Source: Candidatus Woesearchaeota archaeon
GTDB lineage: Archaea > Nanobdellota > Nanobdellia > Pacearchaeales > GW2011-AR1
Direction: 5' to 3'
DNA: 35,043 bases
NCBI GenBank assembly: GCA_964630965.1
Contig: CAZVXB010000001.1
Location: 1-35,043 of the forward strand
The notes below the pieces were generated by a model. It was given only the letters and a program-made list of their open reading frames with translations. It was not told the DNA's origin and searched no databases. Shown here piece after piece: positions 9,115 through 35,043 of the stretch (within the stretch, counting starts at the first letter, position 1; the number at the start of each line of letters is the position of its first letter). Position numbers and translations under genes: made by a program.

Positions 9115-9135
9115 CATGCCGGTAGTGAGTATAAA

Positions 9136-11546: not shown

Positions 11547-11549
11547 CTT

Positions 11550-11624
11550 GCCCTCGTAGCTCAGCCCGGATAGAGCAATGGGGTCCTAACCCGGAGGTCG
11601 AAGGTTCAAATCCTTCCGAGGGCG
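11550..11624 (+). tRNA. tRNA-Arg(CCU)
   Basis: Acceptor GCCCUCG/CGAGGGC with discriminator G. D arm GCUC-AGCCCGGAUA-GAGC. Anticodon loop GUCCUAA. T arm GAAGG-UUCAAAU-CCUUC. It starts 3 nt after tRNA-Leu. No encoded CCA. Confidence 0.88.
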
Positions 11625-11636
11625 GTTCCCATAAAG

Positions 11637-11645
11637 TTTAAAATA
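11637..11645 (+). promoter_or_regulatory. TATA-like box for tRNA-Gly
   Basis: TTTAAAATA with its centre 27 nt upstream of 11668. Confidence 0.5.
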
Positions 11646-11667
11646 CATTCTCAACAGCTCCTTACAT

Positions 11668-11738
11668 GCGCGGTTAGTTTAATGGCAAAATAGCTGGTTT
11701 CCAACCAGCGGTCACGGGTTCGATTCCCGTACCGCGCA
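11668..11738 (+). tRNA. tRNA-Gly(UCC)
   Basis: Acceptor GCGCGGU/ACCGCGC with discriminator A. Anticodon stem GCUGG/CCAGC and loop UUUCCAA. T arm ACGGG-UUCGAUU-CCCGU. No encoded CCA. Confidence 0.9.
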
Positions 11739-11763
11739 TCCTAAATACTACGTCAAGAATAAC

Positions 11764-17339: not shown

Positions 17340-18569
17340 ATGGAAGCATTACAATGCAAATCATGTGGCTTCGAAGGGCTTAATCGCTTTCTAGAGTTAG
17401 GTGCGATACCGCCTGTGAATGCATTTATATCTGAATCAGAAATACCTCATGAAAGGGCTTATTCTCTTAACTTAGCGTACTGCCCCCAATGTTTTCTGGT
17501 ACAATTGGAACAAATTGTTCCTCCTGAAGATTTGTTTAGGAATTATCTTCATCTTTCAGCAGGATCGCCAACAAATGTAAAGCACCTCGAAGAAGTAGCC
17601 GATTATTTAGGAAAAAAGTTTAATCTCAATTCAGAGAGTAAGATTTTAGAGATTGGTTCGAACGATGGTACACTTCCCGCATTCTTTAAGAAGTACACCC
17701 CTCATGTTGTGGGGGTCGACCCGGCACGAAATCTCGTTCAGACAAACAAGGAAAAAGGAATTGATTACATCCCCGAATTTTTCAATACATCAACTGCATC
17801 ACATATTCTCAAGACGCGAGGAACGTTCGATCTTATAGTCGGTTTAAACGTGATTCCTCACACGCCTAATAACATCGATTTACTCAAAGCCGCACGCATA
17901 ATTCTCAAAGATAAGGGCACGTTAGTAATGGAAGGGGTATATGCGCTGGAAACTATTCTTGATGGAGAGTTTGACACTATTTACCATGAACATGTGTATA
18001 CATTTTCCCTTCACGCTTTAATCTCAACGTTCAGAATGGCAGGTCTAACCGTGGTCGATGTAGAAAGAATTCCGACCCAAGGAGGATCATTACGAGTGTT
18101 TGCCATGAAGGATGAATATGCAGACTCTGTATCTTCTACCGTTTTTTCCCTTCTAGACCAAGAAAAGAAGCATGGTCTTGCCGATCCCCAAGCGTACGAT
18201 TCCGTTGGTCAAAAAGTTCTTTCGTATAAAAAAGAGCTCAGATCACTTATAGAGAAGGAAAAAAGTACGAAGGGAAAACTCGTCGGTTTAGGTGCGCCTG
18301 CTAGAGGGGTAGTCATAATGAACTATTGCAACATAAATACGGAAGACTTAGAATATGTTATTGACGACACACCGCTTAAAATTGGGAAAGTGACTCCAGG
18401 GACACACGTACCTGTTAAATCATGGGCGTCGCTCAAGGAAGACGAAGATAGGACGTATCTTCTACTCTCCTGGAACTACAAGGACCATCTACTCTCAAAG
18501 TTAAAGCAACACGTAAAGAAAGGGACAGTCATAATTCCATTTCCTAAATTAGAAGTTATTTCTTTTTGA
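17340..18569 (+). CDS. NDP-hexose C-methyltransferase-like enzyme (Zn-ribbon + class I SAM MTase + C-terminal C-MT domain)
   Basis: N-terminal CKSC...CPQC zinc ribbon, SAM motif ILEIGSNDG, YHEHVYTFS, and GGSLRV. This matches the architecture of the TylC3/NovU-type sugar C-methyltransferase family. Confidence 0.7.
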   Translation: MEALQCKSCGFEGLNRFLELGAIPPVNAFISESEIPHERAYSLNLAYCPQCFLVQLEQIVPPEDLFRNYLHLSAGSPTNVKHLEEVADYLGKKFNLNSESKILEIGSNDGTLPAFFKKYTPHVVGVDPARNLVQTNKEKGIDYIPEFFNTSTASHILKTRGTFDLIVGLNVIPHTPNNIDLLKAARIILKDKGTLVMEGVYALETILDGEFDTIYHEHVYTFSLHALISTFRMAGLTVVDVERIPTQGGSLRVFAMKDEYADSVSSTVFSLLDQEKKHGLADPQAYDSVGQKVLSYKKELRSLIEKEKSTKGKLVGLGAPARGVVIMNYCNINTEDLEYVIDDTPLKIGKVTPGTHVPVKSWASLKEDEDRTYLLLSWNYKDHLLSKLKQHVKKGTVIIPFPKLEVISF

Positions 18570-20443: not shown

Positions 20444-20450
20444 TTTAAAT
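20444..20450 (+). promoter_or_regulatory. TATA-like box for gmd
   Basis: TTTAAAT with its centre 26 nt upstream of the ATG at 20473. It overlaps the alternative ATG at 20449. Confidence 0.45.
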
Positions 20451-20472
20451 GGGTCGAGTTTTGTTAGCCACT

Positions 20473-21573
20473 ATGGAACGAAGAAAGGTTGCTCTTATAA
20501 CTGGAATAACCGGGCAAGATGGATCTTACCTAGCAGAGTTTTTGCTCAAAAAAGGGTATGCTGTGCGGGGAATTATGCGAAGATCCTCTAATCTCAATAC
20601 GAATCGCATAGATCACCTGTACAAAGAGTATAACCCTGACATGGTTCAGGATGCTGAGACTCCCTTCGTTCTTTATTTTGCAGATTTAACTGATGCTTCA
20701 AGTTTACGTTCTATTCTAGAATTGGTAAAGCCTGATGAAATTTACAATCTTGGGGCCCAAAGTCATGTAGGTATCAGCTTCAATAATCCTCTTTCTACGT
20801 TTGATATCAACGCGCTCGGAACATTACGGCTTCTAGATGCCATTAGAGATATGAAACTTCCCTGTAAGTTTTATCAAGCCTCCTCTTCCGAAATGTTTGG
20901 AGCATCTCCTCCACCCCAGAACGAAAAAACCCCCTTTCAGCCCCAAAGCCCCTATGGAGTATCGAAAGTTGCGGCCTTTCATTTAGTAAAAGTATATAGG
21001 AGCGCCTATAATTTGTTTGCTTCTAACGGAATACTATTCAATCACGAATCTCCTCGCAGAGGACATAATTTTGTAACCCGAAAGATAACCAAAGAGCTAG
21101 CAAGAATCGTAGTTGGAGAAACGAATAAAATAAAGCTAGGTAACCTTGACGCAAAGAGGGATTGGGGATTCTCCAAAGAATATGTGGAGGCTATGTGGCA
21201 CATACTTCAACATTCGCAACCCGATGATTTCGTTATTGCAACTAACGAAACACACACAGTAAGAGACTTCTTAAGAGAAGCGTTTGCACTTGTAGGCTTG
21301 AACTACGAAGACTACGTTGTCAATGACGATAGATTCAAACGACCTGCGGAGGTCCCAGCCCTATTAGGAGACTATTCAAAAGCAAAAAATATACTCAAAT
21401 GGGATACAAAGATTAAATTCAAAGAGCTTGTAGAAATGATGGTTGAGGCAGACATTAAAGAAAAGTTGGAATCTGAAGGAATTGTCCCTATCTCCAATGG
21501 GGTCCCTAAACCAAAAGGGTATTACTTAGAACGGGCTAAAGAATTACTCAGTCAAAAGAAATCTGTTAATTAA
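20473..21573 (+). CDS. gmd: GDP-mannose 4,6-dehydratase
   Basis: KVALITGITGQDGSYLAEFLLKKGY.V.GI.RRSS..NT.RIDHLY, SSSEMFG, YGVSK, NHESPRRG. I prefer the start at 20473 (MERRKVALITG). The earlier ATG at 20449 lies inside the TATA-like box. Confidence 0.92.
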   Translation: MERRKVALITGITGQDGSYLAEFLLKKGYAVRGIMRRSSNLNTNRIDHLYKEYNPDMVQDAETPFVLYFADLTDASSLRSILELVKPDEIYNLGAQSHVGISFNNPLSTFDINALGTLRLLDAIRDMKLPCKFYQASSSEMFGASPPPQNEKTPFQPQSPYGVSKVAAFHLVKVYRSAYNLFASNGILFNHESPRRGHNFVTRKITKELARIVVGETNKIKLGNLDAKRDWGFSKEYVEAMWHILQHSQPDDFVIATNETHTVRDFLREAFALVGLNYEDYVVNDDRFKRPAEVPALLGDYSKAKNILKWDTKIKFKELVEMMVEADIKEKLESEGIVPISNGVPKPKGYYLERAKELLSQKKSVN

Positions 21574-21991
21574 TTGCTTTCTTATCTTTCTCAGGCCCAT
21601 AATACGGTCCATTCTTGAATTCAAACAGGTGGGCAGGAGTGAGCGTTTTCATGCTATGTCCTCCATTCACAATCATATAAAAATCCCCTTCATGGAGCAC
21701 GTGTTTCTCCACAAAACTATTGTCGATATCGTAGATAGAAAGTTCTATTGATCCTTTAAAAACAAGTAGTCCTTCATGCGTCTGATAGGTATGGCGTTCG
21801 TGAGAATTATGGGTGTGGGGCTTGACTTGCGTTTGAGCAGGCACATTAAGAAACATGGCTTGTAAACATTGATCTGGTTCGCTAATTTCTTCACGCTTCA
21901 CGTTAGAAAAATCATCGAGCGATGTTTCTTTCTTAAAGATTATGTGGAGAAGAATAGAGGGGTCGATTCTTGAGTAAATTTTATGGATCAT
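21566..21991 (-). CDS. small cupin-fold protein (possible sugar ketoisomerase/epimerase)
   Basis: 141 aa. Cupin motif 1 is PHTHNSHERHTYQTHEGLLVFKG and motif 2 is GDFYMIVNGGHSM. Its start overlaps the stop of the upstream C-methyltransferase by 11 nt. Confidence 0.5.
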   Translation of the reverse strand: MIHKIYSRIDPSILLHIIFKKETSLDDFSNVKREEISEPDQCLQAMFLNVPAQTQVKPHTHNSHERHTYQTHEGLLVFKGSIELSIYDIDNSFVEKHVLHEGDFYMIVNGGHSMKTLTPAHLFEFKNGPYYGPEKDKKAIN

Positions 21992-23213
21992 TTTTAAATT
22001 GCTCTGGAGAGATAAATTCTATACTTTGATTGAACTTAGATAATATCTCTTTAAGTTGCGGGGCAATATTCCAAGACAAAATAAGCGCATACACTTTTCC
22101 ATAATTAGAAAATATTTCATCTCCAACAATAGGAATACGGGTTGCTGGAGTATACTTTCCTTTTTTATGAGGAGAGGAGTCGGTAACGTAATCAATAACG
22201 CTATGATCTAACTTATAAAAATTGAGAAATGTATTCCCTTTAGCAGCAGCACCTACTGCAATTATGGGGTGTCCTTCTTCTTTAATACGATGAACTCGTT
22301 GTAAGAATTTGCTTCGTTGCAAAAGATTATTCCTCATAAATCTCTTATAGGTCTCCAATGAAAAGATACCTTGTTCTTCTTCTTTATCGATCATAGCTTG
22401 CACTGCAGGAGGTAGCGCGCTCGTTTCTTTCTTTTTCTGAGCAATAACACGCAAAGAGCCACCATGATAGTCAACAACTTGTGCAGACGCAATAATCAAT
22501 CCAGCATGACTGAGGAGAGCCGCGGCAGATTTAACGGTAAAATAACTTACATGTTCATGGTAAATCTGGTCGAATTTTCCACTTTCAACTCCAATAGGCC
22601 AGTACGGTTGTTCAAATACAAAACTACCCGTGTCTGAAAGAATATCCGCAACGGCCTTTGTAAATTCACGAGGATTATCTGAATGGTTGTAAACGTTACT
22701 TGCCGTTACAAGGTCGACCTTTCCATAATTCTCGTTAATGCGCTGAGCAACATCTTTCCCAAAAAGCCCAGTAATAGTACTCACACCTCGTTTCTTAGCG
22801 AGCTCAGCCATATAGGGAGAGGCATCAACACCTATGGTTCGATACCCTGTTCTATTGAATTGCTCACAAAGATATCCATCATTCGAACCTATATCTACAA
22901 TCAGAGCGTTAGGCTTAAGACTAACTGCCTTTCCGATTTCAACAACATAGGAATCCCAATGATTGCGGGCAAACGCAGAATTTGAGGAAGTATAGGAATA
23001 ATCAACTTGAGAATATCGCTTCTGGGGGTCAGTCTCGTAACGTGTTTGTACATGTCCACACACCATACATAAGTCACATACCAAAGGATAGACGCTGTCT
23101 CCCTCTCCAACATACGCTTCAGGGACAAATGTATCCGCAAACGGGTGGCTCCCTAGGTCAATTATTTCATTCAATTCCTTTGAATCACATACAAGGCAAT
23201 TCGTACGACTCAT
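21981..23213 (-). CDS. NDP-hexose C-methyltransferase-like enzyme, second paralogue
   Basis: CLVC...CMVC zinc ribbon, IVDIGSNDG, YHEHVSYFT, and GGSLRV. The architecture matches 17340..18569, but the sequence is strongly diverged. Confidence 0.7.
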   Translation of the reverse strand: MSRTNCLVCDSKELNEIIDLGSHPFADTFVPEAYVGEGDSVYPLVCDLCMVCGHVQTRYETDPQKRYSQVDYSYTSSNSAFARNHWDSYVVEIGKAVSLKPNALIVDIGSNDGYLCEQFNRTGYRTIGVDASPYMAELAKKRGVSTITGLFGKDVAQRINENYGKVDLVTASNVYNHSDNPREFTKAVADILSDTGSFVFEQPYWPIGVESGKFDQIYHEHVSYFTVKSAAALLSHAGLIIASAQVVDYHGGSLRVIAQKKKETSALPPAVQAMIDKEEEQGIFSLETYKRFMRNNLLQRSKFLQRVHRIKEEGHPIIAVGAAAKGNTFLNFYKLDHSVIDYVTDSSPHKKGKYTPATRIPIVGDEIFSNYGKVYALILSWNIAPQLKEILSKFNQSIEFISPEQFKNDP

Positions 23214-23275: not shown

Positions 23276-24982
23276 ATGGGTTGCGGTTGCAACGATCCTA
23301 TGAAAAAGATTGACAAGAAGATGCTTCTTGCAGCATGGTCTATTAACAATGTTAATTGGATCATCAATCAAGCCTATAATCTCCCTCTAAGGGATATTTT
23401 TACAACCGTAGTAAATTTCGATCCCCAGGAAGAAATTTATAAATATGGAAAAAAGAAAATGAATCAAAGGTTTTTAGAAATATTAAAAAAAGAAAAGCCA
23501 GATTATATCCATCTCTTTTTAGTATGGGATGAGTTTTATCCTGAAACTCTAATAAAAATAAAAGAAATTCTCCCCAGTGTCAAGGTTACTCACTGGAACG
23601 GAGATGATGACATAAAATTCGAGAACTATACTTTGCCGTATGCAACAACAATAGACTATCAATTCATAAGTCAACTTCAATTTGCAAAGCGTTACAATGC
23701 TGCCGGAATACCTTGGTTTGATATGTTGGGGGCAGATATTGAAAAGTTTAGGCCCCTAAAAGTTAAGAAAAAATATGAGGTTGCATTTGTAGGGACGCCA
23801 AAGGGTGATCGTCTAAAATATATGCGTTTTCTTCTAAAAAAAGGCGTTAACTTCGTGCTCGCAGGAGCAGGATGGAATGATTATCCGGAGTTTAAAGAAC
23901 ATTATATTGGAAAATTAGGGGACGAAGAATTCGTTAAACTCATTAACGAAACGAAGATTAATTTGTGTTTTTCACAAAACTTTTTTGCCTCCCCTCACGT
24001 ATTGGAAAGGTCACTTGCAGTAAATGCCTGCAAATCCTTCGCGTTAACAGAATATGTCGAAGGATATTTTCCGAAATTCAAAGAAGGGTTTGATTTTGCC
24101 AGTTTTAAAACAGAAGAAGAGTTATATGAAAAAATAAATTATTACTTAAAGAAAGAAGAAGAAAGAGAGAAAATAGCTGAAAGGGCATACAAAACCGTAA
24201 CAAAGAATTTTTCAAACCAAAAAATGATGCGTGATGCCTATAAGGCAATAGAAAAAGACAAAGGCCCCCTTTATAGTCTAACTACAAGAAAGTATTTAGA
24301 AGAAAGTCCGGTTTACCTAGACAAGAAAGATTTTAAGAAAGGGGCAGACCACATAAAAAATAAGATTGTCAACTCGAAATATATTGGATTTAGAAACGTA
24401 TATCATGAACCTCTTCCTTACAAAGATTACTACCAAACGTACACTTTAGATATGACAAAAAAACCACTTTCTATATGTGATTCTTATCTAAATTCATTAT
24501 TAATAGGGGACTATGCTTCTTTATCATTGTATTACGCTTATAATTATCTCAAAGATCAGAACTATGTTTATGATAATATAGATATTTCTCAAATCATGGT
24601 TGAGAAAAAATATTTTCTTGAACATCTTAATCTATTTGCAGGAATGTATCAAAATAAAAAGTTTAAGATAAACCCTGAAGAAGTTTCTTTTTTAAGTATT
24701 CCTCTTGTTCGAACAAAGAAAGTAACGAAAATACCTATAATAAATTCAGACCACATTCTATTTACTTACCTTGATTTGAATTTGGTCGTTTTAAGAAACC
24801 AAAAGAGGTTATTCAGAGACCCTTACATTTACAAGCTTATTTTTTATTCTATCTTTGTTAATCCTCAAATAGCAAAACATCTTCTTGTAAATATCTTAAA
24901 ACGTAGTAAAAACCCTTATGCCCTTAAGGTTTCTAATTTCTTTGGCAAGTTCTTTAAGCCTGCACAATTGAAGAATTGTTAG
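23276..24982 (+). CDS. CgeB-like glycosyltransferase (DUF3880 + Glyco_trans_1_2-like) with a ~235-aa C-terminal extension of unknown function
   Basis: The central region YEVAFVGTPKGDRLKYMRFLLKKGVNFVLAGAGW...INLCFSQN...ERSLAVNACKSFALTEY...FKTEEELYEKINYYLKKEEEREKIAERAYKTV resembles the CgeB/spore-maturation-type GT family. An alternative start at 23300 (MKKIDKK) fits the promoter spacing better. Confidence 0.55.
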   Translation: MGCGCNDPMKKIDKKMLLAAWSINNVNWIINQAYNLPLRDIFTTVVNFDPQEEIYKYGKKKMNQRFLEILKKEKPDYIHLFLVWDEFYPETLIKIKEILPSVKVTHWNGDDDIKFENYTLPYATTIDYQFISQLQFAKRYNAAGIPWFDMLGADIEKFRPLKVKKKYEVAFVGTPKGDRLKYMRFLLKKGVNFVLAGAGWNDYPEFKEHYIGKLGDEEFVKLINETKINLCFSQNFFASPHVLERSLAVNACKSFALTEYVEGYFPKFKEGFDFASFKTEEELYEKINYYLKKEEEREKIAERAYKTVTKNFSNQKMMRDAYKAIEKDKGPLYSLTTRKYLEESPVYLDKKDFKKGADHIKNKIVNSKYIGFRNVYHEPLPYKDYYQTYTLDMTKKPLSICDSYLNSLLIGDYASLSLYYAYNYLKDQNYVYDNIDISQIMVEKKYFLEHLNLFAGMYQNKKFKINPEEVSFLSIPLVRTKKVTKIPIINSDHILFTYLDLNLVVLRNQKRLFRDPYIYKLIFYSIFVNPQIAKHLLVNILKRSKNPYALKVSNFFGKFFKPAQLKNC

Positions 24983-25694
24983 AAATTTTTCTCCAAAGTG
25001 AAACATCAAGGGACGAATCTGCTGCTCTTTTTGTTGGAGAAATTTTATTTATTTCTTCAAGAGTTTTTGCTTTTATACTAGGCTTATATTTTTTCAAAAT
25101 AGTATAGAGGCTCGCACGATCACATCCCACATTAAGGGTTCCTATAAACGAGCTTCCAATAATATTTTCTATGGCCCTGGCCAATTCAGAAACAGGTATT
25201 TTCGAGCAAAAGCCGTCAATTGCAGCACTTTCATAAGGGATATTTAGGGGGTCAAAGAAGCTTGTTCGTACTACGCAGTGGTTTGGAGTTAGATGTGCGG
25301 CACATTCTCCTCCAAGTTTTGTCCAAGCATAAGTATTAACAGGTATAACTGCATCCCGTTCACTATAAGGCCCTTTAGTGCAAGGATAGACGTAATCTGT
25401 TGAGATGTAAACGAATCGCGTTCCTGGATTTATTGCCTGTACAACATGGGCGGTTCCGATTACGTTTACGTTAAATGCCTCGACAGGATTCTTCTCACAT
25501 TCGACCATATTAACCAGGGCTGCACAATGAACGACTGCTCCAATCGAGTGTTTTTTAATGAATAAACTAACTGATTCTTTATTCGTTATATCCATTTCTT
25601 GCCTAGTAGGTGCAATGCATCTACTACCTAATAGACTTACAAGTGCTTGACCAAGTTTACCTGTTCCCCCGGTAATTAAGACTTTATCCTTCAT
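24954..25694 (-). CDS. short SDR, RmlD-like NDP-4-ketosugar reductase
   Basis: MKDKVLITGGTGKLGQAL, STDYVY, and catalytic YAWTK. At 246 aa it is shorter than typical RmlD. Confidence 0.6.
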   Translation of the reverse strand: MKDKVLITGGTGKLGQALVSLLGSRCIAPTRQEMDITNKESVSLFIKKHSIGAVVHCAALVNMVECEKNPVEAFNVNVIGTAHVVQAINPGTRFVYISTDYVYPCTKGPYSERDAVIPVNTYAWTKLGGECAAHLTPNHCVVRTSFFDPLNIPYESAAIDGFCSKIPVSELARAIENIIGSSFIGTLNVGCDRASLYTILKKYKPSIKAKTLEEINKISPTKRAADSSLDVSLWRKISNNSSIVQA

Positions 25695-25725
25695 ATTTTT
25701 TTACCATTTAATAGGATTAAATACG

Positions 25726-27282
25726 TTACGATTGTTCTATTTTTTGAAAGGGCATGCTCTTTAGCTGAAACACCTTCGTTCGAATATCCTTTATGATTTC
25801 CCAGTCGTTCTCATCAAACGATTTTGTCGCAAGGAGCAAAACGGAGTAAATACTTCCAAAAATAATGCCTCCTGCAATAAGGGTTCCAAGTGTTTGCCCT
25901 CCGATAGTTGCAATTCCCAAGGTGAGTAAGAAAGGGGCAATTCCAACCAAGGTTATTTTGATAATCGACCGTTTGAGGGGATAAAAACCATATTTTTTCT
26001 TAATCTCAAAAAAGAGAACAAGGCAGAAACCTATCCACGATAGTGTTGTCGCACTAGCAATTCCAACCATCCCATACCGAATAAATAAAAGTCCAAGAAC
26101 GACGTTAAATATGGAGAAGAAGATAAAATTGTATAAAATAAGCTTTGTTTCCTTTTTAGCAGAGAGCAAATTAGTAAACGTATTGAGAAAACCAGAGAAA
26201 AGCCCTCCTAATGCAAGAACCCTAAGGGTATTTTCTGCGCCCCTAAACTCTGCTCCAAAGAGTAAATCAAGCAATATACCTGGAAATATAAATAACAATG
26301 CAAAAACGGGGATATTAATTGTATAAATCCATTTAGTTATCTGTTTAGTAATGGTTCGAATAACTTCTCTGTTGTTTCTCGACAGTTCCTTTGAAACAAC
26401 AGGCAAGAAAAGTTGGCTAAATAAATCAGGAGCCATAACGAAAAGACCGACCAAAGTTATTGCGGCATTATACAAGCCAACAATATTTGAATCAGTAAAG
26501 TAGCCTAAAATCAAAGAATCTGTCCAATAAAACATACTAAGAAGAAGACCTACAAATGCAAGAGGCCAGGAATAGGCAAATAGTTCTCCAAAAAGTTTCT
26601 TTCTTTCTTTCGCAATCAAATGCTGAGCTCTTCTAACAATTGCAAAACGGTCATGAGAAAAATAAAGGGCGACAATAATAAGAGCAACATAAGAAAGAAC
26701 GTACGAATAGAACAGTGATGAAAGCCCAAGTCCAAGCACGATAAACCCTCCGATTAGGGCAAGACGTACCGTATTTTGGAAAGTCCCCACTAAAAAAGAA
26801 GCAGTTTTCGCACGCTCATATGAACGTAATGCTGCGATGAATACATTGGCAATAAGGGAGAGAGGTACAACGAGGCTAAATGCACGAAGAAAGAAGGCGA
26901 GCTCCTCGTTTCCAAAGAAGTTTATGGCAATTATATCTGCAAGTAGGAAAAGAACAATTCCCCCGCAAATTCCAGAAAAGAGCGCAACACGTGAGGCTAG
27001 GGAGAGAATATACTTTATCCGAACATTGTCTTTCCTTCCGATGTAATACGAGATATATCTCACGATTCCATCAGAAAAACCAAGAGAGGCAAAAGCAACA
27101 AAGAAACCGGTTATAATTATTGCAAGAGAGAAGTTTCCATAGGTGCTTGTTCCAAAATTCCGAGCTATTATTATCTTATAACCATACGTCAGAACTTTAG
27201 AAAGTACAAGACTAAGGAAAACAAAAAAAGAAGTTTTAGCAAAGGTGTTTAGGTATTCGTTAGATGTGGTCCTTTCTTTCAT
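25726..27282 (-). CDS. Wzx-like oligosaccharide flippase (MOP/polysaccharide biosynthesis protein family)
   Basis: About 14 predicted TMs throughout, a composition and length typical of Wzx/RfbX. The track start at 27303 is TTG. The ATG at 27282 (MKERTTSNEYL) is 25-26 nt from the TATA-like box. Confidence 0.7.
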   Translation of the reverse strand: MKERTTSNEYLNTFAKTSFFVFLSLVLSKVLTYGYKIIIARNFGTSTYGNFSLAIIITGFFVAFASLGFSDGIVRYISYYIGRKDNVRIKYILSLASRVALFSGICGGIVLFLLADIIAINFFGNEELAFFLRAFSLVVPLSLIANVFIAALRSYERAKTASFLVGTFQNTVRLALIGGFIVLGLGLSSLFYSYVLSYVALIIVALYFSHDRFAIVRRAQHLIAKERKKLFGELFAYSWPLAFVGLLLSMFYWTDSLILGYFTDSNIVGLYNAAITLVGLFVMAPDLFSQLFLPVVSKELSRNNREVIRTITKQITKWIYTINIPVFALLFIFPGILLDLLFGAEFRGAENTLRVLALGGLFSGFLNTFTNLLSAKKETKLILYNFIFFSIFNVVLGLLFIRYGMVGIASATTLSWIGFCLVLFFEIKKKYGFYPLKRSIIKITLVGIAPFLLTLGIATIGGQTLGTLIAGGIIFGSIYSVLLLATKSFDENDWEIIKDIRTKVFQLKSMPFQKIEQS

Positions 27283-27303
27283 ACTCTTCTCTAGCAAGAA
27301 CAA

Positions 27304-27311
27304 TTTAAAAA
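27304..27311. promoter_or_regulatory. shared or bidirectional TATA-like box between the flippase (minus) and methyltransferase (plus) genes
   Basis: TTTAAAAA centred at 27307.5, which is 25.5 nt from the ATG at 27282 (minus) and 25.5 nt from the ATG at 27333 (plus). Confidence 0.5.
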
Positions 27312-27332
27312 CAATCCGGGCGTTATCTCCAT

Positions 27333-28058
27333 ATGGCCAGAAATAGAGTAACGGGTCGCAATACCAAAATTCAGGCCCTTATCGATTTATTCCCCAAATC
27401 ATTTCGACTTCAATTAAATCCTCGACGCCATGCCATTGAAACTTTCGTTAAAAATTCTTCTAAGAAAATAGCGCCAAATTCAAGAGTTTTAGACGCAGGA
27501 GCCGGACCCTGCCCCTATCGGTCTTTCTTCAAACACACACATTATGAAGCTACTGATGTTGTTGATCCCTATAGCATTCTCGATTTTACTTGTAGTCTCG
27601 ATCGTGTCCCTCGCAAAGATAACACTTATGATGCTTTACTTTCAACGGAAGTTCTAGAACACGTGGAATTTCCCCAAAAAGTCATAAACGAATCGTACAG
27701 AATTCTAAAAAAGGGCGGAAAGCTCTTCCTCACTACTCCTCAAGGATGGATGATTCACCAAGCCCCATACAATTACTTTTATTTTACAAAATACGGTTTA
27801 GAAAGTTTACTCAAACAAGCAGGATTCAAAAAGTATAAAATAACCCCCATGGGGGGATATTTCAAGTTTCTTGCTGACGCCCTAAGGTTCAATAGCGTTG
27901 TAGAACAGTGGAGACATATAAAAATAGTTTACTTCCCCCTCGCCTTTCTCGACACCGTATTTCTCAAGATAATTGTTTCATTTATTCTTTTTCATCTTGA
28001 TTTCATAGATAAAAGAAAAGTGTGGACTATGGGCTATACTGTTGAAGCAATTAAGTAG
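27333..28058 (+). CDS. class I SAM-dependent methyltransferase
   Basis: Motif I VLDAGAGPCPY, then DALLSTEVLEHV and KGGKLFLT. The C-terminal segment is hydrophobic. Confidence 0.7.
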   Translation: MARNRVTGRNTKIQALIDLFPKSFRLQLNPRRHAIETFVKNSSKKIAPNSRVLDAGAGPCPYRSFFKHTHYEATDVVDPYSILDFTCSLDRVPRKDNTYDALLSTEVLEHVEFPQKVINESYRILKKGGKLFLTTPQGWMIHQAPYNYFYFTKYGLESLLKQAGFKKYKITPMGGYFKFLADALRFNSVVEQWRHIKIVYFPLAFLDTVFLKIIVSFILFHLDFIDKRKVWTMGYTVEAIK

Positions 28059-29021
28059 TTAATCAGGAATAGTCCATCTGCCCCTTTTTATATCTTTTAG
28101 GTTAAAAATACAGTATGATAAAGATGAGAAATAAAGAGTTGCCTTTAGCCAGTTTCTCTTGTTTGGTCTAAAAAGGAGGAGAGATAGGCGAAGCAAACTT
28201 ATTCCTAGAAGAGACCAAACAAATATGCTTTTCTCTTTAAAGTTTCTATTGAAGTTTTTATAATGTAAATAAAAATGATGTATCTGGTTCATATAGGTTA
28301 TTTTTCGAGCAGGATAACGTTCTATCTGAGATGCTCTGTGAATAAGACGTGCCCTTGGGGTAAGGAAAAGAGAAAGGGGTTTTCTCATGTTAACTCTATA
28401 AGTGAAATCAAAATCTTCGCCCAATGAATATCTACTTAAATGTTCATCAAAAATATCTTTCTTAAAGACTTCTTTTTTGAAAGCCATATTGAAACCGGGG
28501 ATCCACTCAACGTTTATTGTTTTGTTCAATCGAGAAGGGTATATCGCTCCGTAAGAAGAAAGAACACGCCCGGAATTAGGTGCACGATGCTCGATGAAGA
28601 AGAATTTTCTAATGAATGTGCTTATTTTAGAATTTTTCAACCCTCTCGGAAGATAATATCCTCCAACTCCATAAGCAAGAGCGTTCTCATTGAATACTCT
28701 AAGGATTTCTTTAAAGTAATTAGTATCGAGCGTTACATCGTCATCAAGGAAAATAACTATTTTACAAGAACGGTTAATTTGAGAAATTCCTAAATTACGT
28801 GCGACAGTAAGCGAAGGTTTATCTGAAAAAATATACTTTATTTTTTTATCTCTCAAACTTTTAATTAGGTCTTTTGTTTTATGGTCTGTGCTCTGATCAA
28901 CCACAATAACCTCTTGTAAATCCTTAATTTTATTTTTGAACGATACAAGGGTTTCTCTGAGATCCTGAGAACGATTGTACGTAGGGATTATTACAGAGAC
29001 GTCGGCAAGAGAATAATTCAT
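28059..29021 (-). CDS. GT2 glycosyltransferase
   Basis: VSVIIPTYNRSQDL...VVDQSTD...IVIFLDDDV (DxD), with a hydrophobic C-terminal tail. Confidence 0.8.
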   Translation of the reverse strand: MNYSLADVSVIIPTYNRSQDLRETLVSFKNKIKDLQEVIVVDQSTDHKTKDLIKSLRDKKIKYIFSDKPSLTVARNLGISQINRSCKIVIFLDDDVTLDTNYFKEILRVFNENALAYGVGGYYLPRGLKNSKISTFIRKFFFIEHRAPNSGRVLSSYGAIYPSRLNKTINVEWIPGFNMAFKKEVFKKDIFDEHLSRYSLGEDFDFTYRVNMRKPLSLFLTPRARLIHRASQIERYPARKITYMNQIHHFYLHYKNFNRNFKEKSIFVWSLLGISLLRLSLLLFRPNKRNWLKATLYFSSLSYCIFNLKDIKRGRWTIPD

Positions 29022-29536
29022 TTTACTGTCTCCAACTCAAAATAAAGTGAATTAGCCGGGATAAGAAATGAGAAGAAAAAATAATATAGCTTCTGAATTT
29101 TCTCATGAGAATTAACGATCATAGTAAGAAACCGAAGAAAGGGGTGAAAAACTATCTTTCTCTTTACGATGTTAAAACGAGCTTTAGAGTAATAGTTAAG
29201 ACCATCCGTTGGTCTGAAATAATTAAAGGTTAGATAGGTATAAACTGATTTATGGGTAGGGTCCGTAAATGCCCAGATACTTGGGTAAATGGGGACTTTA
29301 ATGACAGTTTTTGACCCTTTCTTTGAAATTCTCCAAATCTCTTCCACAGGGCGTATAATGCTTGAAAGGTGTTCAAGAACATTATCGCAATAAATTTCGT
29401 CAAATGAATTATCCTTAAAGGGCCAAGGATAGTTATCTAAATTGAAGACCTTATCGACTCCTTGGAGTTTAACAGAATCTACATTAAAATACCCCTTTCG
29501 TATATCTTTCCCACAGCCAAGGTTTAATCGTTTCAT
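29018..29536 (-). CDS. small SAM-dependent methyltransferase (Methyltransf_11-like)
   Basis: MKRLNLGCGKDIRKGYFNVD...FDEIYCDNVLEHL. Its stop has a 4-nt overlap with the downstream GT2 start. Confidence 0.6.
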   Translation of the reverse strand: MKRLNLGCGKDIRKGYFNVDSVKLQGVDKVFNLDNYPWPFKDNSFDEIYCDNVLEHLSSIIRPVEEIWRISKKGSKTVIKVPIYPSIWAFTDPTHKSVYTYLTFNYFRPTDGLNYYSKARFNIVKRKIVFHPFLRFLTMIVNSHEKIQKLYYFFFSFLIPANSLYFELETVK

Positions 29537-29548
29537 AGGTTGGATGAG

Positions 29549-30352
29549 TTAAACAGTCTGTTTTCCTTCAATAAATCCTTTCCAAAAACCAGGAATATAA
29601 TAGCAATGGTCTGCCAACGAAGCAACAATATACGCAGGTATAATGCTCAATCCGCCCTTGCTGAACGGATAGCTCAGCAAATAAGTCACAAGCCCAATAA
29701 TCGGTATTGCTTTCACTATTCCTACATACCATCGAGTCATTTTTGTCTTATGAATTCGTACGAGAGCTCCATATCCATTGGCGTATTGGTAATCCTTTCT
29801 CAGCCTATTACCAAATGACGTTGGATGGTGGTGTATAATCTTTGCGTCAGGATAGGCAATAATTCCTTTGTCCTTTATTTTCAAATAGGTATCATAATCT
29901 TCTCCGGCTGTTCTAAAATTCTTTTCATCAAAAAGGCCAATGGAGTTCATTATGTCTTTTCGATAGGCACCCCCCTTACCATCTAATGAAGAAGTAATGA
30001 CTCCCTTTTCTTTTATCATAATGCCCTTTGTTAAGTAGTCAAAACTGTCCCATATGTATTTCGGGAGTTCTACCTTCGATACAGAAGCAACTACTCGAGA
30101 ATCACCAAATGGAGAGATTAGATTTTCCAACCATCTATCATCTGCAGGTACACAATCCTGCGGAAGAAAAACAACAATCTCGTATTTTGACTCTCGTAAG
30201 CCTATGTTCATTTGCTTTGAAAAACCTTGCTTACGATCTATTATCTTGAATTCTATTTTTCCCTTATATTTTTGAGATTTAACGGCCTTCACGAGTTTGG
30301 CTAGTATTTTTTTATCGGGATTATAGGCGGGAACAATAATAGAAACATCCAT
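29549..30352 (-). CDS. GT2 glycosyltransferase
   Basis: MDVSIIVPAYNPDKK...VVFLPQDCVP...GEDYD. The track start at 30373 is TTG; I prefer the ATG at 30352. Confidence 0.8.
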   Translation of the reverse strand: MDVSIIVPAYNPDKKILAKLVKAVKSQKYKGKIEFKIIDRKQGFSKQMNIGLRESKYEIVVFLPQDCVPADDRWLENLISPFGDSRVVASVSKVELPKYIWDSFDYLTKGIMIKEKGVITSSLDGKGGAYRKDIMNSIGLFDEKNFRTAGEDYDTYLKIKDKGIIAYPDAKIIHHHPTSFGNRLRKDYQYANGYGALVRIHKTKMTRWYVGIVKAIPIIGLVTYLLSYPFSKGGLSIIPAYIVASLADHCYYIPGFWKGFIEGKQTV

Positions 30353-30382
30353 AGGTAAAAACCAAGAAAACAATTAATAAAC

Positions 30383-31318
30383 TTATTGTCGATGAGCTTG
30401 ATAGTATTTAATTGTATTAGCAATTCCCTCTTTCAAGGAGACTTCTGGAACCCATCCAAGTTTTCTTAATGGGGTCGTATCTGCGAAGAAATCTCCTATG
30501 CCGACCTTCGTATGAAATATGGGCGGAATAATGTTCTTTGTTTTTGTTCCAGGCAAAATCTCCTCTATGAATCCAATAAGTGTTTTGAATGTGGTCGGTT
30601 CTCCTCTTCCAATATAGTAGACTTTCCCTCTTTCACCTCTATCCATAATGGTTTGACATGCACTAACTACATCTCCAACATAGATGTAATCTCTAATAAA
30701 ATTTCCCCCATTATATACGTCAAGTTCTTTCCCTTCAACAGCCAGATTAATCATGTAGTTGAATCCTGCCTTCTTCTTATTGTTTCCCTGCTCATACGGC
30801 CCAAAAACATTGGTAAATCGAGCAATTCGTACATCAATATCAAATAATCTTTCATAAACTTTACAAAAGTGTTCTCCTGCAAGTCGGGTTGCCCCGTAAA
30901 GTCCCAGAGGGTTACACGGAGACTTTTCGTCTGCAGGTAATTTCTCAACATTTCCATTGACGAAAAAAGTACTGGCAAAGAAAACTATTGCTCGAGGATT
31001 TCCCTTTCTAACTGCCTCAAGAAGAGCAATAGTCCCCTTACAATTTATTTCAATATCATAATAAGGGTCTTCATTAACAGAATAATTGTCTACTGTTCCC
31101 GCAAGATGGTAAATGTAATCTTTATCCCTCACATCCTCTTCGGATATATCTCGAACATCTTTGATGCAGATAATCACGTTCTTTTCCAAATCAGCTATAG
31201 TATACTTCTTTTTATCTGATCTAGATAGGATGGTTACTTCATCTCCAGCAGAAATATGTGCTCTGGCCAAATGACTTCCAATAAAACCCATCCCGCCCGT
31301 TATCAAAACCTTTTTCAT
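30383..31318 (-). CDS. extended SDR (NAD-dependent epimerase/dehydratase family) with YxxxR in place of YxxxK
   Basis: MKKVLITGGMGFIGSHLA and FASTFFV. The catalytic-position motif is YGATR (Tyr codon 30896..30898, Arg codon CGA at 30884..30886, checked by hand translation). Confidence 0.75.
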   Translation of the reverse strand: MKKVLITGGMGFIGSHLARAHISAGDEVTILSRSDKKKYTIADLEKNVIICIKDVRDISEEDVRDKDYIYHLAGTVDNYSVNEDPYYDIEINCKGTIALLEAVRKGNPRAIVFFASTFFVNGNVEKLPADEKSPCNPLGLYGATRLAGEHFCKVYERLFDIDVRIARFTNVFGPYEQGNNKKKAGFNYMINLAVEGKELDVYNGGNFIRDYIYVGDVVSACQTIMDRGERGKVYYIGRGEPTTFKTLIGFIEEILPGTKTKNIIPPIFHTKVGIGDFFADTTPLRKLGWVPEVSLKEGIANTIKYYQAHRQ

Positions 31319-31324
31319 CAGGGT

Positions 31325-32530
31325 TTAGCTTCGATATCCTTTGATGAACTCACCAAGGATCTTATAATAATCTCTCTTCTGTTCTTCTCCCATGCCCCAG
31401 CAGGGTACGAACAACGCTCGTTGCTCAATCTGATCTCCAACAGGGAATCTTCCATCGCTGAGTGAGAGCCATTTAGCATTGGCAAAGGGAGGTTGAGCAG
31501 TTATATTTCCGCACATTACAGGTCGGACTTCAACTTTACTTTTTGTGAGGTATCGTGCAAACTGCCCTCTATCAAAAGGGGCGCTTTCCTTAACGGTAAG
31601 GGGGTAAGCAAACCAACTAGGGGAGGCCTTAGGGTGTGTCTCGGGCAAAACGAAAAAGCCGCTCTCATCAAATAGTTCTGTCATTTCATCAAATTGTTTC
31701 TTTCGTGCGCTAACGAATCCGGGAAGTCTATCCATTTGTGCAGACCCAAAAGCCGCTTGAGGGGCGCTCATCTGATTATCAAGTCCAAGGGTGGAATACG
31801 TATATCTTTTAAGAAACTCTTCATCTCCCGGCCTAAAGTCTCTTCCCCAGAAAGTAAGACTTCGCATAATCTCAGCGAGAGATTTGTCTCGTGTGGCTAC
31901 AGCCCCGCCAACTCCTCCAGATGTTATATGGTGCGACGCATAGAAACTATAAGCAGCAGCATCGCCCATTGAGCCCACATGCTTCCCTTCAAACGTTCCT
32001 CCGAGCGTATCGCAACAATCTTCAAGCAGAAATCTGTGCTTTCCAAGACTTCGCGTAATGGCATTCATATCAGGGATATTTCCGAGCAAATGAGGCAAAA
32101 CCATTCCTCTTGCTTCTGGATAGCGTTCAATTGCCTTGGAGACTTGTTCAGGATCGATAACATAAGTGGTTGGTTTAGTTTCAAGAAAAACAGGCACAAG
32201 CCCTAAATTTATCGCGGAAGAGATACTCGTTGCAAACGTAGTCACGGGATGCAATACTTTGTCTCCAGGAGACCATCGACCTTGTTTTTTAAGTGCCAGC
32301 AATGCATTTTCAATAGCTGCGGAGCCGCTGTTAGTAAGGTGCACATAGGGGATTCCCGTAAAAGCCGCTAGCTTTCCTTCAAATTCTTTCTGAGGTTTTC
32401 CATACCCAAACCAGTCTGCTTGGAGAACTTTTTCTTCTAAGGCCTTAACTTCCTCGGGACCCCATTGAATACGGTTTATGAGATGACTATCTCCTTGCTT
32501 CCATTCTTTCCAACCAAGACTAGAATCCAT
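31325..32530 (-). CDS. DegT/DnrJ/EryC1-fold PMP-dependent NDP-4-keto-6-deoxyhexose 3-dehydratase (ColD / E1-RfbH type)
   Basis: Aspartate-aminotransferase-fold sugar enzyme (NSGSAAIENALLAL, LEDCCDTLGG). The Schiff-base lysine position reads SFYASHHITSGGVGG, i.e. His instead of Lys. That substitution is the hallmark of ColD and E1 dehydratases. Confidence 0.72.
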   Translation of the reverse strand: MDSSLGWKEWKQGDSHLINRIQWGPEEVKALEEKVLQADWFGYGKPQKEFEGKLAAFTGIPYVHLTNSGSAAIENALLALKKQGRWSPGDKVLHPVTTFATSISSAINLGLVPVFLETKPTTYVIDPEQVSKAIERYPEARGMVLPHLLGNIPDMNAITRSLGKHRFLLEDCCDTLGGTFEGKHVGSMGDAAAYSFYASHHITSGGVGGAVATRDKSLAEIMRSLTFWGRDFRPGDEEFLKRYTYSTLGLDNQMSAPQAAFGSAQMDRLPGFVSARKKQFDEMTELFDESGFFVLPETHPKASPSWFAYPLTVKESAPFDRGQFARYLTKSKVEVRPVMCGNITAQPPFANAKWLSLSDGRFPVGDQIEQRALFVPCWGMGEEQKRDYYKILGEFIKGYRS

Positions 32531-32550
32531 AAATGGGAGCCCATCCGACG

Positions 32551-32559
32551 TTTTAAATA
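32551..32559 (-). promoter_or_regulatory. TATA-like box for the five-gene minus-strand sugar operon (32530 down to 28059)
   Basis: The minus strand reads TATTTAAAA. Its centre is 25 nt from the ATG at 32530. Downstream genes are separated by 6, then 9 (track starts; 30 with my revised GT2 start at 30352), then 12 nt, and finally a 4-nt overlap. Confidence 0.5.
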
Positions 32560-32604
32560 CTTTTTGCTAGTCAAGAACATATACGCGGATTTCTCAAATA
32601 AAGG

Positions 32605-32612
32605 TTTATATA
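32605..32612 (+). promoter_or_regulatory. TATA-like box for aglB
   Basis: TTTATATA with its centre 26 nt upstream of the ATG at 32635. Confidence 0.5.
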
Positions 32613-32634
32613 CGGTATAAGTTCATAGCTATCG

Positions 32635-35043
32635 ATGGAAGGACATCATAGGCCTGCTTCTGAAAACCAACTAGTAGCCGAGCGGAAGGATAAGATTCTA
32701 AGCACACTCAAGAGAAATACTGATTTTATTGCCTACCCTCTTCTCGCATTTATAGTTTTCATCGCCGTAAAAATAAGAACTGCAAACCTCGCAGGATTAA
32801 GGGATATTACAACGGGTGATTGGACGCTTGGTCCCGACTTAGACCCCTTCCTCTTCTTGCGCTGGGCAAAGTACATTGTAGAAAACGGAAGCCTCATGGT
32901 TCTCGATACTATGCGTTATGCTCCGATTGGATTTGATACTTCTTATGAGCTTAGTCTTCACGTATATCTTATCCATTGGTTTCATGAAATTGCATCTGTA
33001 TTAGGGTCTTCATCAATAACTCAGTCTGCAGTGATTTATCCCGTATTTATGTTTGCCCTCTCAGTGATTGCCTTTTTCCTCATGACTCGTGCCTTTTTCA
33101 TCAACTCTATGACCAAGAACCAATCAAACGCAATCGCTCTCATCGGTGCTTTCTTTCTTTCTGTAACTCCTGCCCTCATTCCACGAACAATAGCCGGAAT
33201 TCCAGAAAAAGAAGCAAGCGGAATTCTCTTCTTATTCCTCGCATTTTACTTTTTCATTTCAGCTTGGAACGCTAAAGCAAATATTTGGAAATATGGGGCT
33301 GCTCTTCTTGCAGGCGTATCAACTGCCCTTATGGGTCTTGTTTGGGGAGGATATCTTTACATAATTATTACAATTGGTCCTGCAGTCTTCATTTCATTTA
33401 TTCTGGGAAAAGTAACTGCAGATAGGAAATACATTTACTATACGTGGATAGTCTCAGCTATAGCCTTACTTTTACTATGTACTAATCGATATTCATTAAA
33501 TGAATTATTAGGGTCAACTACAAACGCTCCCTGTATATTTGTTTTCTTACTTCTTCTATTTGACTCTCTCATCTACAACACCTCTCTAAAAAATTATGTT
33601 TCAAGATTACCCTGGCTTTCTAAACTTTCCAGGCCCGTAATTTCAACAATAGTAACAATAGTTGGAGGAATTATTATTTCATCTCTAATGTTCGGACCAA
33701 CATTCATTATTGATAAAATAATGTCTCTCAAAAGATTTCTCATAACCACATCGGTAGATAGACTAAACGTGACTGTTGCCGAGAATAGACAGCCTTATTT
33801 TGTTGAATGGGTTACCAGCTTTGGCCCACAAGTAGCAAAAATATTTATCTTCTTTTGGGCTTTTTTTGTGGGTGCTATTCTTCTCTTTTATAATGCAGTA
33901 AGGTCTCTAGGTAAGAAAGAATCGATTGTCCTCACAACGTTCTTCACCTTTTTCCTTTCGTCTATAGCTTTTAGTAGATACTCTCCAACCAGTATTTTTA
34001 ATGGAACTAACTTCCCTAGCTTGTTATTCTATGCTCTTGGCTTTTTCTCCTTCCTCTTTATTGCAGGCTACTATTATAAAAAACATTACGCTGCTTCTGA
34101 TGACTTTTTAACTAAGGTTGACTCGGGCTCTATTTTTGTTCTTGTCTTCTTTATTACAAGTCTTATTTCTGCTCGAGGAGGAGTTAGACTGGTTATGATG
34201 CTTGTCCCCTCTGTTTCAATTCTTGCGGCTTATTTGTTTGTAAAAGGAAGCTTGCTTCTCAACACACCCAAAGAAGAACCCTCAAAACGAAGAATTTCAA
34301 CTTACATAGTCATAGGGATCATGTCTCTCGCATTTATCTTCGCAGGGTATAACTTTTATACCACTTCCTTAACTTCTGCTGAGGGATATATCCCTTCAAT
34401 ATATAACCAACAATGGCAAAAGGCCATGGCTTGGGTACGAGAAAGTACACCCTCAAATGCTGTTTTCGGGCATTGGTGGGATTATGGTTACTGGGTGCAA
34501 AGCATAGGTGAACGCGCAACAGTTCTCGATGGAGGGAACGCAAAGTCCTATTGGAATCACATGATGGGAAGATACGCGCTAACAGGCCCCAACGAGCAAG
34601 AGGCTTTAGAATTTCTATATGCACATAACACCACTCATTTCCTCATCGATTCTACAGATATAGGAAAATATGGGGCATTTTCAAGCATAGGTTCAAACGC
34701 AAGTTACGATCGAACGAGCTTTATAGTCCCATTTAATCAAGATTCACGTCAAACACAGGAAAGGAAAAATTCAACCCTCTTCATTTATACTGGAGGGATA
34801 AGTCTAGATCAGGATATAGTCTATAATCTCAATGGAACGCTTTTGTTCCTTCCAGCAAATAGGGCCGGACTTGGGGCTATTCTCATTGAGAAGTCTCTTG
34901 AAGGAGAGCTAATGACTCAACCACTCGGAATTTTTGTATATAATGGAAATCAATATACCTTGCCTCTAAGATACGCCTTTGACGGAAAATTCGAGGATTT
35001 CGGAACAGGAATAGAGTCTGGAGTCTTTTTCCTCCCTCGTGTT
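32635..35043 (+). CDS. aglB: archaeal oligosaccharyltransferase AglB (STT3 family), 3'-truncated by the window edge
   Basis: Not in the ORF track. I translated 803 codons by hand from the ATG at 32635 to the window end and found no stop (an in-frame TAG lies at 32626). First-loop DLD is at 32836..32844. TVAE (TIXE/SVSE-type motif) is at 33772..33783. WWDYG is at 34474..34488. The DK motif DIGKYGAFSSIG starts at 34657. Confidence 0.92.
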   Translation, partial: MEGHHRPASENQLVAERKDKILSTLKRNTDFIAYPLLAFIVFIAVKIRTANLAGLRDITTGDWTLGPDLDPFLFLRWAKYIVENGSLMVLDTMRYAPIGFDTSYELSLHVYLIHWFHEIASVLGSSSITQSAVIYPVFMFALSVIAFFLMTRAFFINSMTKNQSNAIALIGAFFLSVTPALIPRTIAGIPEKEASGILFLFLAFYFFISAWNAKANIWKYGAALLAGVSTALMGLVWGGYLYIIITIGPAVFISFILGKVTADRKYIYYTWIVSAIALLLLCTNRYSLNELLGSTTNAPCIFVFLLLLFDSLIYNTSLKNYVSRLPWLSKLSRPVISTIVTIVGGIIISSLMFGPTFIIDKIMSLKRFLITTSVDRLNVTVAENRQPYFVEWVTSFGPQVAKIFIFFWAFFVGAILLFYNAVRSLGKKESIVLTTFFTFFLSSIAFSRYSPTSIFNGTNFPSLLFYALGFFSFLFIAGYYYKKHYAASDDFLTKVDSGSIFVLVFFITSLISARGGVRLVMMLVPSVSILAAYLFVKGSLLLNTPKEEPSKRRISTYIVIGIMSLAFIFAGYNFYTTSLTSAEGYIPSIYNQQWQKAMAWVRESTPSNAVFGHWWDYGYWVQSIGERATVLDGGNAKSYWNHMMGRYALTGPNEQEALEFLYAHNTTHFLIDSTDIGKYGAFSSIGSNASYDRTSFIVPFNQDSRQTQERKNSTLFIYTGGISLDQDIVYNLNGTLLFLPANRAGLGAILIEKSLEGELMTQPLGIFVYNGNQYTLPLRYAFDGKFEDFGTGIESGVFFLPRV

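Follow-up and report, generated by a model that had tools for sequence, protein, structure and literature searches.

A His-type DegT protein of a DPANN archaeon predicted to be a sugar 3-dehydratase without an iron-sulfur cluster

The window analyzed in this study is the complete 35,043-nucleotide stretch of contig CAZVXB010000001.1 (assembly GCA_964630965.1) from a Candidatus Woesearchaeota archaeon, and the gene of interest is an open reading frame (ORF) near its right end that encodes a DegT-fold protein with His in place of the catalytic Lys. Its position and its length of 401 aa were as given in a first-pass annotation. The gene, referred to as DegT(His), is the first of a tight minus-strand operon with the order DegT(His), short-chain dehydrogenase/reductase (SDR), GT2 glycosyltransferase, methyltransferase and GT2 glycosyltransferase, in which intergenic gaps or overlaps are 12 nt or less, and it lies head-to-head with an ORF for an AglB-type oligosaccharyltransferase (Pfam STT3 61.7 bits, STT3-PglB_core 23.9 bits). 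The features central to the analysis are the following.

31325..32530, minus strand: DegT-fold His-type ORF of 401 aa, a predicted pyridoxamine 5'-phosphate (PMP)-dependent nucleoside diphosphate (NDP)-4-keto-6-deoxyhexose 3-dehydratase without an iron-sulfur (Fe-S) cluster
31904..31948, minus strand: catalytic motif S195-FYAS-H200-H201-ITSGGVGG, from the translation and alignments
31823..31849, minus strand: W228-GRDFRPGD-236, the site at which the dehydratase E1 carries a Cys insertion that is absent here, from the translation and alignments
30383..31318, minus strand: extended SDR of 311 aa, 6 nt downstream of the DegT(His) gene (Pfam Epimerase, 154.6 bits)
32531..32634: divergent, A/T-rich spacer of 104 nt between the DegT(His) gene and aglB, with two TATA-like elements, TTTTAAATA and TTTATATA, which may be promoter elements
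32635..35043, plus strand: AglB/STT3 oligosaccharyltransferase of 803 aa with a WWDYGYW motif, running off the contig end

The 401-aa protein matches the Pfam family PF01041 (DegT_DnrJ_EryC1) with 231 bits (E=3e-68), and the peptide SFYASHHITSGGVGG, encoded at 31904-31948 on the minus strand, contains His200. This residue falls in the column of the Schiff-base Lys of Lys-type paralogues, of His220 in E1 and of His188 in ColD. In HMMER alignments to PDB sequences, the query residues A-S-H200-H-I-T were aligned to P-A-H220-H-I-T of E1 (3bcx), and the same stretch was placed opposite P-A-K-H-I-T of the E1 H220K mutant (3bb8). A MAFFT alignment of 96 sequences, which included four Lys-type DegT paralogues drawn from the same loci, had His in this column in all 34 members of the query's own clade (clade A below) as well as in 21/21 E1-like and 28/28 ColD-like sequences, and Lys in 4/4 of the Lys-type paralogues. 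The HH pair was present at this position in each of the 120 closest database homologues, and the substitution is therefore a fixed family trait that is neither chance nor private to this protein. The register that the first-pass annotation had read by eye was right, since HMMER, the MAFFT alignment and the 120 homologues agree on it and the Schiff-base column of the query holds His rather than Lys. The equivalents of D194, Y217 and F345 of E1, a dehydratase signature in agreement with conservation in the 21 E1-like sequences, are kept in the query as D174, Y197 and F307. In addition, the query has a Ser-His dyad, S199-H200, comparable to S187-H188 of ColD.

Comparison with characterized proteins gave the following matches.

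E1 (3bcx): HMMER 204 bits, BLAST identity 35.5%, Foldseek template modelling (TM) score 0.90
9wvy, putative NDP-4-keto-6-deoxyglucose 3-dehydratase: HMMER 132 bits, BLAST identity 33%
Perosamine synthase: HMMER 115 bits, Foldseek TM 0.84-0.85
ColD (2gms): HMMER 110 bits, BLAST identity 26%, Foldseek TM 0.87-0.88

The AlphaFold model of the query, for which a 38-sequence family alignment served as input, had a mean predicted local distance difference test (pLDDT) score of 92.1 and a predicted TM score (pTM) of 0.92. The best NCBIfam model was the RfbH equivalog NF011936 with 263.7 bits, below its cut-off of 423. The query resembles E1 (RfbH/DdhC/AscC, the CDP-6-deoxy-L-threo-D-glycero-4-hexulose-3-dehydrase) in having His in place of the Lys, in its HH dyad and in the counterparts of D194, Y217, F345 and C193, while it lacks the Cys insertion, is about 36 aa shorter and has GVGG for GEGG and Gln for K290. 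It resembles ColD in the Ser before the His, in lacking an Fe-S cluster and in overall length and fold; on the other hand, its score to ColD is no better than that to perosamine synthase, and the positions of its Val and Gln are occupied in ColD by the Glu of GEGG and by Arg. The structure 9wvy is likewise His-type (SFYAGHH) and about 400 aa long, and the part of it that aligns lacks the Cys cluster, but it keeps GEGG and in a neighbor-joining (NJ) tree is a basal branch of the His-type group. Our literature searches found no paper on clade A or on 9wvy.

Scanning the GTDB species representatives yielded 78 loci, whose His-type proteins were sorted into three clades.

Clade A, that of the query: SFY[AG]SHH, about 400 aa, no Cys motif
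Clade B, E1-like: SFYPAHH, Cys motif present
Clade C, ColD-like: SFF[FI]SHH, one member scoring 284 bits to ColD (2gms)

Hosts of clade A were metagenome-assembled genomes (MAGs) of Pacearchaeota, Woesearchaeota, Nanoarchaeota and GW2011_AR19, with proteins 50-70% identical to the query. In NJ bootstrapping, all His-type proteins separated from the Lys-type proteins in 100/100 replicates, with a small outgroup of four Lys-type paralogues, and clade A, including a more distant tier of 43-47% identity (tier A2), was likewise recovered in 100/100. The placement of the query among the PMP-dependent 3-dehydratases, as proposed in the first-pass annotation, is upheld by this split, and the query does not fall inside the aminotransferases. 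The ColD-like descent that had been argued from protein length was not supported: the query stands outside the ColD clade (94/100) and has 26% identity and 110 bits to ColD versus 35% and 204 bits to E1, so that by sequence it appears nearer to E1 than to ColD by descent. A profile search of 1.84 billion cluster representatives returned 5,347 proteins at E<=1e-30, among which clade A accounted for only about 10-12 clusters at 50% identity, together with many more His-type lineages, some with the Cys motif and some lacking it. Clade A is a distinct lineage present in DPANN archaea and on viral contigs. Three proteins, P0140, P0145 and P0166, are His-type DegT proteins of 670-820 aa with inteins (Intein_splicing, LAGLIDADG, Hint) near the catalytic SFY..HH motif.

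To our knowledge, E1, ColD and SpnQ are the only well-characterized PMP-dependent sugar 3-dehydratases, and they define two mechanisms. E1 and SpnQ use a cluster and a reductase, whereas ColD relies on hydrolysis and glutamate; E1 and SpnQ carry a four-Cys [2Fe-2S] motif and ColD has none (PMC8987622). In E1 the insertion reads WGRD-C251-Y-C253-APGCDNT-C261 at the site that is W228-GRDFRPGD-236 in the query, and at the columns of C251, C253 and C261 Cys is present in 21/21 E1-like sequences, whereas 34/34 clade-A sequences have a gap. The Cys residues conserved in all 21 E1-like sequences are C193, C251, C253 and C261, which matches the cluster ligands reported for E1. Closer examination of the cysteine pattern that the first-pass annotation had singled out revealed that the four-Cys motif is not complete in the query: three of the four are absent along with their insertion, and only the equivalent of C193, C173, is present. 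C173 is the single invariant Cys among the 120 homologues (the next most conserved occurs in 75/120), and its column holds Cys in every ColD-like sequence and in all His-type clades and Ala in Lys-type DegT proteins. Since it is present in cluster-free ColD and clade A as well, C173 is no sign of a cluster and is instead a hallmark of the whole His-type dehydratase group.

No E3-like (Fer2/FNR-type) reductase was found among the window ORFs, which bears out the earlier statement to that effect, and no Fer2/FNR-type gene was found in the Pfam-annotated related loci. A regular-expression scan of 277 ORFs for plant-type ferredoxin/FNR motifs was also negative for clade-A loci, a weak result since none was detected beside E1-like genes either. 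Because the Cys insertion and an E3-type partner are both absent, reductase-independent, ColD-like chemistry is the best inference for this protein, with ColD as its predicted mechanistic analogue. Of the ColD-like reading in the first-pass annotation, the cluster-free part is therefore retained, with reductase independence now drawn from a tested sequence feature rather than from length, while ColD descent is not.

A cluster-free protein might also pass through E1/SpnQ-type chemistry if its 3,4-ene-PMP intermediate were reduced by general cellular ferredoxin or flavodoxin. E1 is, after all, the closest characterized relative in sequence and fold, and SpnQ (dTDP-4-keto-2,6-dideoxyglucose 3-dehydratase), a His-type relative of E1 with a dTDP-sugar as its substrate, uses general reductases and has no dedicated E3 (PMC8987622). 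SpnQ, compared with the query by its description in the literature only, nevertheless has a bound [2Fe-2S] cluster and depends on ferredoxin or flavodoxin reductases (PMC8987622). Given the loss of three of the four cluster Cys with their insertion, the lack of any other conserved Cys set, viral copies accompanied by an SDR only with no redox partner, and the failure to find Fer2/FNR-type genes nearby, we give this route very little credence.

Several residues set clade A apart from both E1 and ColD. At the Glu position of GEGG, which is Glu in E1, ColD and Lys-type proteins, 30/34 clade-A sequences have Val (V207 in the query) and the other 4/34 have Gly, and there is one extra residue ahead of GGVGG. 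Gln253 is invariant in clade A, where E1 has Lys290 and ColD and the aminotransferases have Arg, and His94 is invariant as well. Such changes at otherwise universal positions (GEGG to GVGG, Arg/Lys to Gln253, and the invariant His94) would suit a His-type PMP/PLP (pyridoxal 5'-phosphate) enzyme that is not a 3-dehydratase at all and carries out a net C4 transamination, or an epimerization or isomerization of a keto sugar, and SpnQ is known to transaminate without a reductase (PMC8987622). We regard this as improbable, as every characterized His-type member (E1, ColD and SpnQ) is a 3-dehydratase, the dehydratase-signature residues of E1 are kept, and the adjacent SDR and the DegT-SDR fusions described below fit a keto product in need of reduction and not an amino sugar.

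Neighboring genes were scored within 10 kb of the homologues after metagenome and IMG/VR loci had been added and duplicates removed, which left 33 DPANN-tier and 21 viral-tier loci; neighbor families were assigned against references, with RmlA, RmlB and Gmd confirmed above NCBIfam cut-offs. An adjacent SDR is the most conserved partner of DegT(His). In the DPANN tier, an orthologue of the 311-aa SDR of the window was present within 10/33 loci and directly adjacent in 8/33, and an SDR of either kind (this orthologue or an RmlD-like protein) was directly adjacent in 11/33. In the viral tier A2 (L004, L083-L091 and L119-L144, e.g. L084 8001-9200), an RmlD-like SDR was directly adjacent in 17/21 loci, located upstream and followed by glycosyltransferases and methyltransferases. 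Contigs of this tier bear terminase, ChaB or YopX genes or are IMG/VR viral genomes, and the gene set looks like a viral glycan-modification cassette.

The association extends to gene fusions. P0143 is a DegT-SDR fusion, P0138 joins an RmlD-like domain to an E1-type domain, and in P0150 an Fe-S-less His-type DegT domain (SFYASHIITAAGGGG) is fused to a dTDP-glucose 4,6-dehydratase (388 bits, cut-off 365). RmlD-like or other SDR domains and His-type DegT domains were seen in either order among the fusions P0138, P0143, P0150 and P0151. A separate RmlB-RmlA fusion protein of 625 aa was noted in the DPANN loci L010 (13868-15745), L012 and L015. For the window SDR (30383-31318), every NCBIfam match was below its cut-off and the best PDB match was GalE-like; it lacks the dehydratase Asp-Glu pair and has YxxxR (YGATR) in place of YxxxK. 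The catalytic Lys is Arg in 4/5 orthologues (window, L001, L006 and L008) and Lys in L005. Arg at this position is unusual among SDR sugar reductases and epimerases. We propose that the SDR is an NAD(P)H-dependent 4-ketoreductase or epimerase that acts as the partner of DegT(His).

Candidate sources of the sugar substrate were sought in the window and in the related loci. The following genes of the window are relevant to this question.

20449-21573, plus strand: Gmd (TIGR01472, 455.5 bits, cut-off 415)
21566-21991, minus strand: WbuC-type cupin (TIGR04366, 39.4 bits, below the 42-bit cut-off)
21981-23213, minus strand: TylCIII-type sugar C-methyltransferase (Methyltransf_13/14)
17340-18569, plus strand: second TylCIII-type C-methyltransferase (Methyltransf_13/14)

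The Gmd that had been reported about 10 kb away in the same island is real, lying at 9.75 kb and scoring above its equivalog cut-off. Its proposed role as the source of a ColD-type substrate is less secure, since the link is weak across the family: Gmd occurs within 10 kb in 3/33 DPANN-tier loci, the window included, and in 0/21 viral-tier loci, RmlA/RmlB in 7/33 and 0/21, and both together in 0/33 and 0/21. ColD-like genes of clade C usually have Gmd and a GDP-fucose-synthase (GFS)-like gene within 1-5 kb, and no GFS-like gene was found in the window. The neighborhoods of the E1-like clade are dominated by conserved Chloroflexota synteny and provided no pathway information. RfbF, RfbG (CDP-glucose pathway) and E3 genes were all absent from the window, the SDRs stay well under the cut-off for CDP-glucose 4,6-dehydratase, and a CDP carrier is supported by no neighbor gene.

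The Gmd of the window is one argument that the protein is a functional ColD equivalent, which would act on GDP-4-keto-6-deoxymannose to yield a GDP-3,6-dideoxyhexose such as colitose. The S199-H200 dyad and the lack of an Fe-S motif, both as in ColD, agree with this, as do the loci L013 and L110, where Gmd, a GFS-like gene and a C-methyltransferase lie within 5 kb of the homologue. Apart from the low identity to ColD, the position outside its clade and the scarcity of Gmd relative to RmlA/RmlB, the partner SDRs are RmlD-like or GalE-like and not ColC/GFS-like, the Fe-S-less relative P0150 is fused to a dTDP-glucose 4,6-dehydratase, and the cupin and C-methyltransferase that flank the window Gmd suggest a separate 3-C-methyl-6-deoxyhexose route. 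A ColD equivalent in this strict sense is accordingly judged unlikely, though of the alternatives to the 3-dehydratase favored here it is the one to be taken most seriously. The trio of Gmd, cupin and C-methyltransferase recurs in L013 and L110. It could belong to a separate GDP-linked route to a 3-C-methyl-6-deoxyhexose resembling virenose or vinelose, which are GDP-linked sugars of this type, or it could supply the substrate. As for the substrate itself, dTDP-4-keto-6-deoxyglucose is the leading candidate at a little short of even odds, GDP-4-keto-6-deoxymannose is given a somewhat smaller chance, and some other substrate a smaller one again; dTDP is somewhat favored across the family, while GDP is possible in this particular window.

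The remaining genes of the operon and the block next to it are the following.

29549-30373, minus strand: GT2 glycosyltransferase (Pfam)
29018-29536, minus strand: methyltransferase (Pfam)
28059-29021, minus strand: GT2 glycosyltransferase (Pfam)
27333-28058, plus strand: methyltransferase (Pfam/NCBIfam)
25726-27303, minus strand: Wzx/MATE-type flippase (Pfam/NCBIfam)
24954-25694, minus strand: short RmlD-like reductase (Pfam/NCBIfam)

The gene order of the operon recurs in the loci L008, L006 and L005, and synteny of the block at 24954..28058 (methyltransferase, flippase and reductase) is kept in L008 and L006. Because this glycosyltransferase and flippase operon faces AglB, the locus is an N-glycosylation island. 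A conserved protein of 350-380 aa without a Pfam match adjoins DegT(His) in five DPANN loci (L010, 11198-12256 on the minus strand, L008, L011, L012 and L015). Archaeal genes elsewhere in the window encode RNA polymerase subunit D/Rpb3, ribosomal proteins S4 and S13 with DUF655, and SecD/SecF. Just upstream of the glycan island are a 5S rRNA gene (9135-9249, minus strand), a cluster of three tRNAs (Leu-CAA, Arg-CCT and Gly-TCC; 11463-11741, plus strand) and a homologue of L-2-hydroxyglutarate oxidase (14181-15383, minus strand; 337 bits, cut-off 299), and Rfam and tRNA scans detected no non-coding RNA relevant to the DegT locus.

The reading we favor, with a probability of roughly 58%, is that the gene encodes a PMP-dependent NDP-4-keto-6-deoxyhexose 3-dehydratase with an E1-like scaffold that has no [2Fe-2S] cluster and turns over without a reductase. 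In the proposed sequence of events, PMP would condense with the sugar at its C4 keto group to form a Schiff base, His200 would act as the general base that takes the C4' proton, and the C3 hydroxyl would leave. Because there is neither a cluster nor an E3-type partner, the resulting 3,4-ene intermediate is expected to be resolved as in ColD, by hydrolysis to a 4-keto-3,6-dideoxy sugar and ammonia, with PMP restored by an amino donor. Reduction of the C4 keto group, possibly with epimerization, by the translationally coupled SDR (30383-31318) would then yield an NDP-3,6-dideoxyhexose, which the downstream glycosyltransferases, methyltransferases and flippase may place into a lipid-linked glycan for transfer onto protein by the divergently encoded AglB.

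Five points weigh against this 3-dehydratase assignment. Val207, Gln253 and the extra residue differ from E1 and ColD near the catalytic motif, and the chemistry could differ if the Arg/Lys or the Glu is required for glutamate-dependent regeneration of PMP or for dehydration. The grouping of clade A as sister to the E1 clade was recovered in only 41/100 bootstrap replicates, and clade A as a whole appears to be previously uncharacterized. In the window there is no 4,6-dehydratase besides Gmd and no nucleotidyltransferase at all to define the substrate, and the Arg at the catalytic Lys of the partner SDR makes its role as a reductase uncertain.

Proteins of clade A are named 'DegT/DnrJ/EryC1/StrS family aminotransferase' by NCBI and 'CDP-6-deoxy-D-xylo-4-hexulose-3-dehydrase' by JGI, and neither name is well founded. 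The gene probably serves to supply a dideoxy sugar to protein glycans of the archaeal cell surface. The first-pass annotation had gone further in deriving a 3,6-dideoxyhexose in an archaeon from this gene; as an inference this is plausible, but it was overstated, as the sugar is only predicted. ColD-like genes accompanied by Gmd and a GFS-like gene are already present in MAGs of other archaea. Such ColD-like genes (SFF[FI]SHH), often located beside Gmd and a GFS-like gene, were found in MAGs of Aenigmatarchaeota, Heimdallarchaeota, Nitrosopumilales and Micrarchaeia (L044, L046, L048, L058, L063, L065, L076, L077, L079 and L081), which suggests colitose-type pathways in Archaea. This window is therefore not alone among Archaea in its gene potential for dideoxy sugars. 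No 3,6-dideoxyhexose is listed in a 2024 review of the sugars of archaeal N-glycans (PMC11407970), and our literature searches turned up no paper on such a sugar in archaeal glycans.

A more far-reaching proposal, which we offer tentatively and consider doubtful on the whole, is that the DPANN and viral clade represents a third, mechanistically distinct class of PMP-dependent C3-deoxygenases. Its members would have an E1-type scaffold that never carried the Fe-S insertion, a remodeled active site (GVGG, Gln253 and His94) and a portable two-gene module with the SDR, and they would produce a dTDP- or GDP-3,6-dideoxyhexose, the first in archaeal N-glycans, with viral carriage serving the remodeling of surface glycans.

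Clade A combines an E1-like sequence with the cluster absence of ColD, and it therefore bears on whether Fe-S-independent deoxygenation has originated repeatedly and on which residues decide the route taken. The cell surfaces of DPANN archaea matter for their ectosymbiotic lifestyle, and the 3-dehydratase assignment predicts a 3,6-dideoxyhexose in their N-glycans, while the two-gene module carried by viral genomes suggests that viruses drive glycan remodeling.

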